Below the pieces are notes generated by a model. It was not told the origin of the DNA, searched no databases, and saw only the letters and a program-made list of their open reading frames with translations. A DNA stretch of 63,771 nt, counting the filler, from Reclinomonas americana ATCC 50394 (taxonomy: Eukaryota): NCBI GenBank assembly GCA_048213135.1. It is 7 parts of 4 records of this genome, joined end to end, with 100 filler letters (N's around TTAATTAATTAA, not from the genome) between each part and the next. Parts side by side here need not be neighbours in the genome. Positions count along the whole stretch, not along the records: positions 56,608 to 62,178 come from PS015172.1; 6 more parts are not named here. The stretch is one strand, 5' to 3'. This document shows positions 57,688 to 60,692 of the stretch, piece by piece (the stretch's first letter is position 1; each line of letters begins with the position of its first letter). Made by a program: the position numbers and the translations under genes.

Positions 57688-60600
57688 ATGGCAGAGCCCT
57701 CACAGAAACGACGCAAGACAGGTGTGCGCGACGCATGATTCTGAGATTCTCTCACTCTCACTCTCTCACTCTCTGTCTCTCACAGGTGGCAACTCTGCGG
57801 CAGTGGTGACTGCGCGTGCCAATGGGCACGGCTTGTCGGCAGAAGAGTACGTGGACTTGTCGGTGTTGGCGCGGGGATTGCCGGTGGAGTTGCCTGGGCC
57901 AGCGGGTGCATTGGACCCGAGTGTGCCGCACGCACCGCGACGCACGCCTAACCTGACTGCGCAGGAGCGAGTGGTGTGTGAGAGGGAGAGATCGGAGAGA
58001 GAGAGACAGTGTTGTGACATCATGTGATTCATCTCTTTTCGTGTCTTGCAGCTGGCGGTGCAGAATGCGTTGCGGTACTTCCCTCGCGATTGGCACTGCG
58101 TGCTGGCGCCGGAGTTTGCGGAAGAGCTGCATCTGTATGGTCACATCTACATGCACCGGTGAGTCGTTGTTCTTCCTGTTTCGCCTTGGCGACATTGGTC
58201 TCATTCTCGTGTGCAAGGTTCCGACCCACGGAGTATGCCATGAAGGCGTACCCGGTGGACATGTATCCGGCCAAGTGTGTGCAGGGTTCGTCGTCCCGTT
58301 TTGCCTCTCGTTGCTTCCATGTGGAAACACTGATGTCATCACAGCGGCTTGCATGATGCTGATGATTATGAACAACCTGGATCCGCGCGTGGCGCAGTTC
58401 CCGCACGAGTTGATCACGTACGGCGGCAATGGCAGCGTGCTGCAGAACTGGTCGGTCTTGGAGGCTTGCACACACGTGCCTTCTCCCTTCTCTCACTCGC
58501 TCGCGTGCACACGTACAGGGCACAGTACCTGCTGGTCATGCAGTACCTGTCGGAGATGACCGACGAGCAGACGTTGGTCATGTACTCGGGTCACCCTCTC
58601 GGTCTGTTCCCCAGCCACAAGGAGTCACCGCGCGCTGTCATCACCAATGGCATGGTGGTACCCAACTATTCCTCCAAGCAAGAGTTGCGCTACGTGGCTC
58701 TCCCATCGCTCTCATGCCTGCATCTCACACTCCCTGCAGCTACGAGCGCATGTACGCTGTCGGGTGCTCCATGTACGGGCAAATGACGGCCGGCAGCTAC
58801 TGCTGTTGCGTTATGTTGTGTGCTTACAAGTCTCCGTTGGCGTATCATGCACTCACACCTCCACGGCAATCACCTCCTGCGCAACACAGACATCGGACCG
58901 CAGGGTTGCGACAACATCTCTCCTCGACCTGCATCGCACTGCGCGCTCATTATTCTTGCAGGAATCGTGCACGGAACAACGCTGACTCTCCTCGGTGCTT
59001 CGCGCAAGTACCTGCACACGGGCGACCTCTCGGGCACCATTTTTGTCACCTCTGGCCTCGGCGGCATGAGTGGCGCACAGGCCAAGGCCGCTGTGATTGC
59101 CGGTGCCGTGGGCGTGGTGGCCGAAGTGAGCGGTACGTGCCCTGTGGAGTCTTTGATAGATCCTGGCCATGCTAGCCTCTCACCCTATCCTGCACAGAGG
59201 CCGCTCTGCGAAAGCGCCACGAACAGGGTTGGGTGATGGAGGTGCAAACTGATCTCGACTCGTGCATTGCGCGCATGCGCGAGGCGCGCGAGGCACGGCT
59301 GCCACTGAGCATCGGCTACCTGGTGCGTCATTCCGCGACATCTCTCTTGTTCTTCACTGAACCTCACACGCACGCCAGGGCAACGTGGTCGACCTGTGGG
59401 AGCGTCTCGTGCACGAGGAGGATCTGGAAGTTGCACTCGGTTCCGACCAGACCTCCTGCCACAACCCATACGGTGGCGGCTACTATCCAGTGGGCCTGTC
59501 GTTCGAGGAGGCCAACGAAATGATGGTGCAGGATCCGCCGCGTTTCAAGTTGCGTCGAGACAGGAAAACCCACGAAACAGAAACACAGTCTTATCTGTCT
59601 GACATGTTGGCACGCGCGCAGGGAGTGTGTGCAGGCCAGTCTGCGTCGGCACATTGCCGCCATCAACTCGCTGACGACGGCGCGTGGCATGAAGTTCTGG
59701 GACTACGGCAATTCGTTTTTGCTCGAGTGCAGCCGTGCCGGAGCCGATGTGATGAGTGCCGACGGCACACACTTCCGCTATCCCTCGTACGTCGAAGACA
59801 TTATGGGCGACATTTTCAGTCTGGGCTTTGGTCCTTTCCGCTGTTGCGTTGCGCGAACGTGGCGTCGCGAGAGAATACCCACTCATCGGTGATGCAGGGG
59901 TGTGCACGTCGGGTGATCCGGCTGATCTCGAGCTTACGGATCGGATTGCGGCCGAGATCACGGCCGAGAAGGCGACAGTGGCCGATGAGCTGTCCAAGCA
60001 GCAGGTTCATTCCCTGGTGATGATTGCCGTGAGTGGCCCGTCGCTGTTCTCATTTCCTTTGCAGTACGAGGACAACCACAAGTGGATTGTGCAGGCGGGA
60101 GCAAACAAGATGGTCGTCGGCAGCCAGGCTCGCATTCTGTACAGCAATGCCGAGGGTCGTGTGGCGATCGCCGAGGCGTTCAATCGCGCCATTGCGAGTG
60201 GCGAGATCTCCGGACCGATTGTGCTGTCGCGCGATCACCACGACGTGTCGGGGGCGGACTCACCGTGGCGAGAGACCGCCAATGTCAGCGACGGCTCACG
60301 CTTCTGCGCCGACATGGCCGTGCACACGTTTGTTGGCAACACGTTCCGTGGCGCGACATGGGCGGCACTGCACAATGGCGGTGGCACAGGTTGGGGCGAA
60401 GCGATCAACTGCGGGTTTGGATTGGTGCTGGACGGCTCTGCCGAGGCCGCCGCCCGTGCCCACAACATGCTGTGGTGGGACGTGAATAATGGAGTTGCGT
60501 TGCTTTTGCTTTCTCGCCACGAGAGATGAGCTCACACGCTCGCAGTTGGCGCGCCGCGCATGGGCCGGTCATCCACTTGCGAGGTCGACGGTGCGAGAGA

Positions 60601-60692
60601 ACATGCGCGTCGACCCGACACTTCGCATCACGGTGGCAGAGCTCGCCGACGACGATCTCGTGCAAGATGCCGTGTCGGCAGCATTCAAGTAA
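57688..60692 (+). CDS. UROC1: Urocanate hydratase (HutU/UROC1), eukaryotic long form, complete, 14 introns
   Basis: HAPRRTP, NALRYFP, MNNLDPRVAQFPHELITYGGNG, GQMTAGSYCYIGPQGIVHGT, GLGGMSGAQAKA, SDQTSCHNPY, VVGSQARILY, LSRDHHDVSGADSPWRET, LHNGGGTGWG; ends AFK*. Confidence 0.97.

Follow-up and report, generated by a model that had tools for sequence, protein, structure and literature searches.

How does a spliceosome read an intron whose donor letters stand one base too far in? The question is raised by the urocanate hydratase gene (UROC1/hutU) of Reclinomonas americana ATCC 50394, which lies in a stretch of 63,771 nucleotides (nt) joined from seven parts of assembly GCA_048213135.1 (the window) and in which six of 14 introns start with GTTGCG. 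The first-pass annotation of the window had described such donors as ordinary donors with one T inserted after GT, and had proposed that this lineage routinely uses a +1-shifted or bulged pairing register. Working from DNA and protein homology, we found GTTGCG(T) at the start of about one fifth to one third of the short introns, in place of the usual G/GTNNGT, the slash marking the exon-intron boundary. The explanation that we favor, although we give it somewhat less than an even chance, is that the major (U2-type) spliceosome handles these as ordinary short GT-AG introns, with a donor signal one base further in that is read in a shifted register by a single re-tuned U1 small nuclear RNA (snRNA). 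The class belongs to the off-register 5' splice sites, a known kind, and is unusual in its abundance, its rigidity and its exon-end rule.

Donors fixed by protein homology

With a hidden Markov model (HMM) built from 94 full-length urocanases, we scored all in-frame, stop-free donor/acceptor pairs at 13 UROC1 junctions regardless of their dinucleotides (1231-2973 candidates per junction). The best GT-AG pair stood in the top tie at 10 of the 13 junctions, and at the other three it fell 0.6-1.7 bits short of the top, intron length being unchanged; in the 12 junctions having a second-best GT-AG pair, that pair was 4.6-35.6 bits lower, and intron length was fixed at each of the 13 profiled junctions. 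This scoring agreed with the six GTTGCG introns first annotated in UROC1 (donors 58684, 58805, 58905, 59549, 59843 and 60494). The gene holds both donor classes, one of them out of register, with six introns of the displaced kind, seven ordinary introns and one outlier, whose donor at 60005 belongs to the sole GT-AG pair in its junction's top tie, in a protein region that is length-variable among relatives. The spliced coding sequence, from the ATG at 57688 to the stop at 60690-60692, is 2118 nt long and open to the terminal stop. Its largest exon matched 7997 relatives, the best of them 75-78% identical, and the organism's own UROC1 protein was absent from the protein database searched with that exon.

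Altogether, 26 introns (the verified set) were fixed without use of the donor motif, 25 by homology (profile or PDB coordinates) and one, the first UROC1 intron at 57722, by frame closure; by donor, they comprise 8 GTTGCG, 2 others with T at +3 and G at +6, 15 GTNNG and 1 outlier. In hutI, introns were fixed at 57361 (GTGTGT), 57224 (GTTCGT) and 57092 (GTTGCG), and exons adjoin at TIGR01224 positions 58/59, 81/82 and 130/131, the last of these belonging to a further intron at 56869. A thin HMM (35 homologues, mostly fragments, from the N-terminal exon) left the fourth hutI junction unsettled, and NCBIfam coordinates settled it at 56869; both GTTGCG donors previously noticed in hutI (57092 and 56869) are thereby fixed by TIGR01224 exon continuity. 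For the CDK-like kinase gene at the window's end, continuity of coordinates on PDB chain 1v0b_A confirmed the annotated GTTGAGT donor at 62716 and GTTTCGT donor at 63077, and placed a 143-nt intron with GTGAGT at 62837 (position 182, split codon, 184). Homology also fixed the thiolase introns at 34498 (GTGCGT) and 34004 (GTACGC) and the eIF3b introns at 62067 and 61705 (minus strand, both tcg/GTTTGT) and 61522 (GTGAGT).

A donor-blind survey of the window

Further introns were called with a GT-AG parser that combined codon usage, an acceptor matrix, a CTVAY branch-like word and intron length, its donor information being GT only. It replaced a self-trained parser based on codon usage only, which had drifted onto a giant repeat gene and parsed UROC1 wrongly. 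Of the 22 introns that had been verified by then, the parser recovered 18, and 18 of the 20 calls it made in those genes were verified, figures that are not independent because it was trained on those same genes. Two calls clashing with verified introns were removed, two that split the 143-nt kinase intron were replaced, and verified introns missed by the parser were added together with the hand-checked introns at 40359 and 31553, the latter having open frames on both sides and a next exon that begins at TauE profile position 16. The resulting 142 introns consist of 28 with GTTGCG and 10 others with T at +3 and G at +6 (together, the new class), 68 with GTNNG (ordinary donors) and 36 with other donors. 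We suspect that these last, of which 35 of 36 were parser-only, many reading t/GTGT, and whose kind makes up 1 of 26 in the verified set, are mostly false calls.

GTTGCG was present, by sequence search, at all of the coordinates for which it had been annotated, and occurs in the window 45 times on the plus and 40 times on the minus strand. It follows just 85 of 8022 GT sites (1.06%), yet 27 of 140 called introns begin with it (binomial p = 8e-26). Likewise, 19 of the 36 GTTGCGT heptamers on both strands were called donors, a fraction that was 10 of 61 among GTGAGT and 5 of 78 among GTGCGT sites. The donors annotated at 32271, 35861, 36032, 38293, 45222, 49636 and 55138, along with six sites in a repetitive fibre gene, were all called by this GT-only parser. 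GTTGCG accounts for 28 of the 142 introns (20%) and for 8 of the 26 verified ones, among which the whole class reaches 10; because most of the 36 other donors are taken to be false calls, 20% is a lower bound for the share of the class.

The first-pass annotation had further predicted that the G peak would move from +5 to +6 when T stands at +3, and it did so. Among the donors with +3T (n = 60), G was found at +5 in 14 and at +6 in 38, and T at +6 in 15 and at +7 in 38, versus 54, 12, 46 and 13, respectively, among the remaining donors (n = 82). In the verified set, G at +6 without G at +5 characterized 10 of 15 donors with +3T and none of the 11 others (p = 7e-4). Thus, both displacements that define a shifted register (G from +5 to +6, T from +6 to +7) are seen in the +3T donors.

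Exon ends, stereotypy and the 3' half of the introns

G preceded the intron (position -1) in only 4 of 38 new-class introns versus 51 of 68 ordinary ones (p = 6e-11), and the difference persisted with one intron per paralogue cluster (4/34 versus 48/63) and among verified introns only (2/10 versus 14/15, p = 3e-4). Position -1 of the GTTGCG introns held T 10, A 9, C 6 and G 2 times, the G count falling below the background frequency of 0.289 (2/27, p = 0.007). Avoidance of G at -1 argues against a simple bulge, which keeps the usual exon-side pairing; of the original proposal, the routine use of such donors is borne out, whereas the plain bulge is not. For exon letters -1 to -3 of the GTTGCG introns, the ordinary profile slid by one base gave a log-likelihood of -113.4 versus -136.8 unslid.

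On the intron side, the new class was nearly uniform, with GC at +4/+5 in 28 of 38 donors versus GC at +3/+4 in 12 of 68 ordinary donors (p = 2e-8; verified introns, 8/10 versus 2/15); the ordinary +3/+4 pairs were GC 12, GA 12, GT 10, AC 9 and TT 8 of 68. Therefore, the class is not simply any ordinary donor plus T, and the earlier equation of the two holds letter by letter but fails in frequency. The letters GCGT at +4 to +7 of the new class are the commonest ordinary letters at +3 to +6 (G in 36/68, C in 25/68, G by definition, T in 43/68). Out-of-register GTTAAGT and GTTGAGT donors number one and two; since these would be the expected leaders with a standard ACUUAC arm, their rarity means that the reader, if it acts by base pairing, should be complementary to UGCGU.

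The 3' halves of the two classes were alike, although this likeness is partly built in since the parser's acceptor and CTVAY terms act on both: CTVAY occurred near the 3' end of 19 of 27 GTTGCG and 54 of 68 ordinary introns (verified, 7/7 and 10/14), and the acceptor was CAG in 20 of 27 and 56 of 68, respectively. Median intron length was 70 in both classes, the intron phases (15/7/4 for GTTGCG, 42/17/7 for ordinary) were alike and without bias away from phase 0, and none of 829 5-mers in the introns was class-specific (lowest p = 0.018). The alike 3' halves argue that the class is not U12-like. In addition, neither strand of the window contains [AG]TATCCTT, and no called donor has it. As expected of the major type, GTTGCG introns have GT...AG ends, removal of those fixed by homology restores the conserved frame, and the class shares the branch-like motif and YAG with the other introns.

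A proposed displaced motif and its alternatives

The ordinary donor is G/GTNNGT, with the modal letters G/GTGCGT, and the second class is /GTTGCGT. Letter for letter, the latter equals the modal ordinary motif with its second G changed to T, and the cut falls one base earlier, the intron still starting with GT. U1 snRNA would then pair with both motifs in one motif-relative register, the intron's first G filling the slot normally held by the last exon G, and the later steps (U6, U5) would set the cut at GU. Such a displaced register would carry an obligatory mismatch at the second letter, and all of the remaining letters would have to pair; this demand, we propose, may be why the class is near-invariant while ordinary donors are loose. 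The U1 arm would need to be complementary to UGCGU, which the standard arm ACUUAC is not, and a consequence would be that introns can follow exon ends other than G.

Several points weigh against one re-tuned U1 in a shifted register. What we observed is that the class exists, how often it occurs, its exon-end rule and stereotypy and the ordinary 3' half of its introns; U1, U6 and the register we infer from DNA statistics alone. The slid exon profile (-113.4) fits the exon letters of the GTTGCG introns no better than background does (-111.9), and C, favored at -2 of ordinary introns (36/68), is not favored at -1 of the new class (6/27); because the slid fit does not rise above background, the exon side backs a shifted register only negatively, as 'not G'. 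The commonest ordinary hexamer is GTGAGT (10) and not GTGCGT (5), a lead in keeping with ordinary donors being read by a standard-like arm and, consequently, with the new class having a second U1. Moreover, 115 of the 142 introns were located by the parser alone, four of whose calls proved wrong and were removed, nine introns are located in paralogous repeats, and the likeness of the 3' halves is in part the parser's own; the proportion of other donors among parser-only calls (35 of the 36) relative to the verified set (1/26) suggests that about a quarter of the parser-only calls are false.

The lead of GTGAGT among ordinary donors would be expected if two U1 snRNAs were at work, a standard-like U1 reading G/GTNNGT and a second U1 variant, or other snRNA, fully complementary to GUUGCGU and acting in its own normal register. 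This is possible, though we doubt it. Two U1 snRNAs would accommodate a near-invariant class beside diverse ordinary donors, as well as its lack of a positive exon-side signal, expected if seven intron letters suffice, and excerpts of a preprint (10.1101/2022.06.08.495308) list both standard and modified U1 candidates in Physarum. What they leave unexplained is the depletion of G at -1 to below background and the fact that the rigid motif is the modal ordinary motif slid by one base. A broader formulation, which we also hold to be conceivable but not probable, is that the major spliceosome here follows two parallel donor codes, a loose, exon-anchored G/GTNNGT and a rigid, intron-only GUUGCGU, the latter served by its own U1 or by one re-tuned U1 out of register, with the cut uncoupled from the U1 register. 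In a bulged register, the usual U1 would pair with +1G and +2U, the extra U at +3 (or +2) would bulge, and pairing would resume at GCGU, which would move the G peak from +5 to +6 just as observed; furthermore, both the bulge +2/+3 and the bulge +3 register are known from experiments in human cells, going by the excerpted text of Tan et al. 2016 (PMC4856993). However, a normal exon-side register should favor the G at -1 that is instead avoided, the unshifted exon profile fits far worse than the slid one, and in the same excerpts these two registers are predicted for only 54 and 36 of 201,541 human sites. We therefore regard a bulge as improbable.

A rigid donor without exon-side preference would also fit a transformed minor-spliceosome (U12-type-like) class, read by a U11-like RNA and expanded as in Physarum, for which part of a preprint (10.1101/2020.10.12.336362) gives 20,899 U12-type introns with altered motifs; yet the absence of [AG]TATCCTT from the window, the lack of a distinct branch motif (CTVAY occurring as in ordinary introns) and the lack of any bias away from phase 0 make it very unlikely. 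Least credible of all is an artefact, in which homology fitting and the parser would have picked up chance GT sites or copies of one mobile introner. The number of parser-only introns and the nine in paralogous repeats speak for it, but in three genes protein profiles or PDB coordinates pin down ten members of the class, the donor-blind parser calls GTTGCG at about 19 times the rate expected from how many GT sites it follows, no pair of donor flanks (-25 to +35) outside five paralogue clusters reaches 75% identity, and the results stand with one intron per cluster.

Relation to known splice signals

Shifted (+1) and bulged U1 pairing at atypical human 5' splice sites was reportedly described by Roca and Krainer in 2009 and by Roca et al. 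in 2012, and to our knowledge work on the placement of the cut with an out-of-register U1 has been confined to reporters and a few dozen rare sites in humans. Excerpts of PMC4856993 put non-canonical U1 registers at altogether 2.1% of human sites and describe U1 as only marking the site, with U6 later setting the cut. Like the human off-register sites of those excerpts, the GTTGCG introns are GT-AG introns of the major type in which the U1-pairing letters would lie one base off the cut. Unlike them (bulges at 90 of 201,541 sites), the present class forms 20% of called and 10 of 26 verified introns, consists of one nearly fixed heptamer tied to non-G exon ends, and would be a poor pairing partner for the standard ACUUAC arm whatever the register.

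We count as a precedent for a re-tuned U1 the arms reported from Entamoeba (AACAAAC, donor GUUUGU(U)) and Mastigamoeba (ACGUAC, donors GUGCGC) in excerpts of a preprint (10.1101/2022.06.08.495308). Common to those systems, so far as excerpted, and to the window are amoebozoan-type genes, a donor with T at +3 or C at +4 and a proposed change of the U1 arm; they have one transformed consensus in the normal register, whereas here two classes coexist in single genes and the change would be known from the donors alone. An anti-correlation of exon-end G with intron-side strength also links our classes to the two main 5' splice-site classes, which partial texts of PMC9803359, PMC11732430 and PMC11842720 describe as opposed in exon-side (U5 loop 1) and intron-side (U6 ACAGA) strength, but the classes in those texts share one register and overlap broadly, while the intron-side class here is displaced by one base and almost invariant. 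With the U12-type introns of Physarum, as far as preprint 10.1101/2020.10.12.336362 was excerpted, the class has in common that its donor is rigid and extended, that G at -1 is not required and that an appreciable part of the introns in one amoebozoan is of the kind; unlike U12-type introns, it has no TATCC donor, class-specific branch site or phase bias. GTTGCG(T) was not named as a splice signal in titles or abstract openings among the matches listed, which is no proof that it is unpublished.

If our favored reading is true, a genome with one fixed out-of-register signal at between a fifth and a third of its introns would be a natural large-scale test bed, with new-class and ordinary donors side by side in the same genes. 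The class predicts the U1 arm sequence required, exon-final G is cleanly traded in it against intron-side pairing, and many exon ends in this lineage will be placed wrongly by gene finders that were trained on GTRAGT. Should the two donor codes be real, they would add a third kind of intron signal to the ordinary U2-type and the U12-type, would uncouple the cut from the U1 register in about a quarter to a third of introns, and would let introns sit where the exon does not end in G.

Feature coordinates and neighboring genes

Table 1. UROC1 and the introns and donors discussed, in coordinates of the window (exon letters in lower case before the slash)
Feature	Position	Strand	Exon end/donor	Basis and remarks
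UROC1/hutU (urocanate hydratase) gene	57688..60692	+		15 exons, 14 GT-AG introns of 52-85 nt
UROC1 first intron	57722	+	GTGTGCGCG	frame closure of spliced coding sequence only
UROC1 donor	57974	+	GTGTGTGAG	profile-fixed
UROC1 donor	58159	+	GTGAGTCGT	profile-fixed
UROC1 donor	58286	+	GTTCGTCGT	profile-fixed
UROC1 donor	58451	+	GTCGGTCTT	profile-fixed
UROC1 intron	58684..58739	+	aga/GTTGCGCTA	unique top of 2356 candidates
UROC1 intron	58805..58889	+	gct/GTTGCGTTA	unique top of 2247 candidates; micro-exon follows
UROC1 intron	58905..58961	+	agg/GTTGCGACA	sole GT-AG pair, in top tie
UROC1 donor	59133	+	GTACGTGCC	profile-fixed
UROC1 donor	59323	+	GTGCGTCAT	profile-fixed
UROC1 intron	59549..59621	+	caa/GTTGCGTCG	top tie
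UROC1 intron	59843..59897	+	gct/GTTGCGTTG	top tie; missed by parser
UROC1 outlier donor	60005-60064	+	cag/GTTCATTCC	G at neither +5 nor +6
UROC1 intron	60494..60545	+	gga/GTTGCGTTG	best GT-AG, 0.9 bit below top tie, same length
hutI intron	57017..57092	-	acg/GTTGCGTCG	HMM top tie; TIGR01224 81/82
hutI intron	56811..56869	-	cga/GTTGCGAAC	acceptor AAG; TIGR01224 130/131; also parser
CDK-like kinase intron	62716..62769	+	gaa/GTTGAGTCG	GTTGAGT; exons adjoin on 1v0b_A 160/161
CDK-like kinase intron	63077..63136	+	caa/GTTTCGTTG	GTTTCGT; 1v0b_A 214, split codon, 216; also parser
EF-hand gene intron	40359..40429	+	gtc/GTTGCGTGC	frames; EF-hand_7 profile continuous across; hand-checked addition
TauE-like gene intron	31553..31622	+	gca/GTTGAGTAA	acceptor AAG; not parser-called; hand-checked addition
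TauE-like gene intron	32271..32346	+	gct/GTTGCGTCA	parser; preceding exon = TauE 2-43
RasGAP gene intron	35861..35937	+	ctc/GTTGCGTCT	parser; RasGAP profile 34 then 37, weak E-values
RasGAP gene intron	36032..36107	+	cga/GTTGCGCTC	parser only
Intron	38293..38358	+	gat/GTTGCGTTT	parser only
U-box protein gene intron	41945..42010	+	aga/GTTGCGTCT	parser only
EF-hand gene intron	45222..45302	+	gat/GTTGCGTGG	parser only
Kelch-repeat gene intron	47820..47884	-	tcc/GTTGCGCAC	parser only
IFT20 gene intron	49636..49712	+	aga/GTTGCGGGT	parser; preceding exon ends near IFT20 position 32-33, continuity inexact
Intron	53700..53769	+	atc/GTTGCGTGT	parser only
Intron	53884..53945	+	gca/GTTGCGTAG	parser only
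Intron	54778..54849	+	gaa/GTTGCGACA	parser only
Intron (annotated GTTAAGT site)	55138..55210	+	cag/GTTAAGTGC	parser only
Possible last eIF3b intron	60833..60897	-	ttt/GTTGCGGGC	parser only; outside protein's conserved part
Intron	29796..29861	-	act/GTTTCGTTC	parser only
Intron	26220..26301	-	gaa/GTTTCGTCG	parser only
Intron	25220..25291	-	cat/GTTGCGTGT	parser only, low-scoring gene
Weak candidate intron	24719..24798	-	aac/GTTGTGTGC	parser only
Intron	22599..22675	-	tga/GTTTCGTTT	parser only
Weak candidate intron	20939..21026	-	gcg/GTTCCGATG	parser only
Fibre-gene intron	9604..9685	-	acc/GTTGCGTGC	parser only
Fibre-gene intron	8538..8624	-	gcc/GTTGCGTGT	parser; paralogue of 7564 and 4343
Fibre-gene intron	7955..8022	-	gct/GTTGCGTCC	parser; paralogue of 4802 and 3741
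Fibre-gene intron	7478..7564	-	gcc/GTTGCGCCC	parser + repeat comparison
Fibre-gene intron	4737..4802	-	gct/GTTGCGTCC	parser + repeat comparison
Fibre-gene intron	4257..4343	-	gcc/GTTTCGTCC	parser; paralogue of GTTGCG introns 8624 and 7564
Fibre-gene intron	3674..3741	-	gct/GTTGCGTTT	parser + paralogue clustering

The window consists of GC-rich, intron-dense eukaryotic DNA with 34 N runs of 20 to 998 bases, which interrupt several genes (thiolase, hutI, eIF3b and RasGAP) and are the cause of apparent GC-poor islands in the composition profile; these islands were accordingly rejected as a real feature. The window contained no snRNA gene at Rfam gathering scores, and no spliceosomal snRNA was among its five weak Rfam matches at E up to 10.

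The fibre gene, or gene array (1375-22970, minus strand), is very large and repetitive and has many short GT-AG introns, which mark it as a eukaryotic gene and not contamination. Against Pfam, its exons scored weakly for bactofilin-like, DUF5649 and haemagglutinin repeats and for a C-terminal Peptidase_S74 (endosialidase chaperone) domain at 1528-1812, and an intronless exon of 1397 residues (13810-18000) had no Pfam match. In two comparisons of repeat copies, the exons were 99.0% and 97.0% alike and the introns 96.1% and 92.6%, every gap falling inside introns and one 20-base gap being an N run; a third comparison aligned poorly and was not used. At one paralogous site, two copies carry GTTGCG and the third GTTTCG. 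Clustering at 75% identity over -25 to +35 yielded five paralogue clusters, all within this gene, and an introner (mobile-element) origin of the introns was rejected, as flanks were alike only inside the repeated gene. On the opposite (plus) strand, at 4494-4559, 7712-7777 and 8775-8840, lie three weak SNORD48-like matches (21-21.5 bits versus a gathering score of 36; E of 1.1-1.7), which are probably chance matches copied along with the repeat unit.

Elsewhere, an intraflagellar transport gene, IFT20 (49497-50105, plus strand), indicates that the organism probably builds cilia or flagella, and the eIF3b donors at 62067 and 61705 have the same ten letters around the donor (ctcg/GTTTGT). Within UROC1, the micro-exon at 58890-58904 is 15 nt long and encodes part of the conserved YIGPQG stretch, and both of its flanking introns start with GTTGCG; a second GTTGCG at 59848, five bases past the donor at 59843, is a possible tandem donor. 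The genes hutI (56688-57579, minus strand) and UROC1 (plus strand) stand head to head with their start codons about 110 bases apart, and the hutI product and urocanase carry out two consecutive steps of histidine breakdown.

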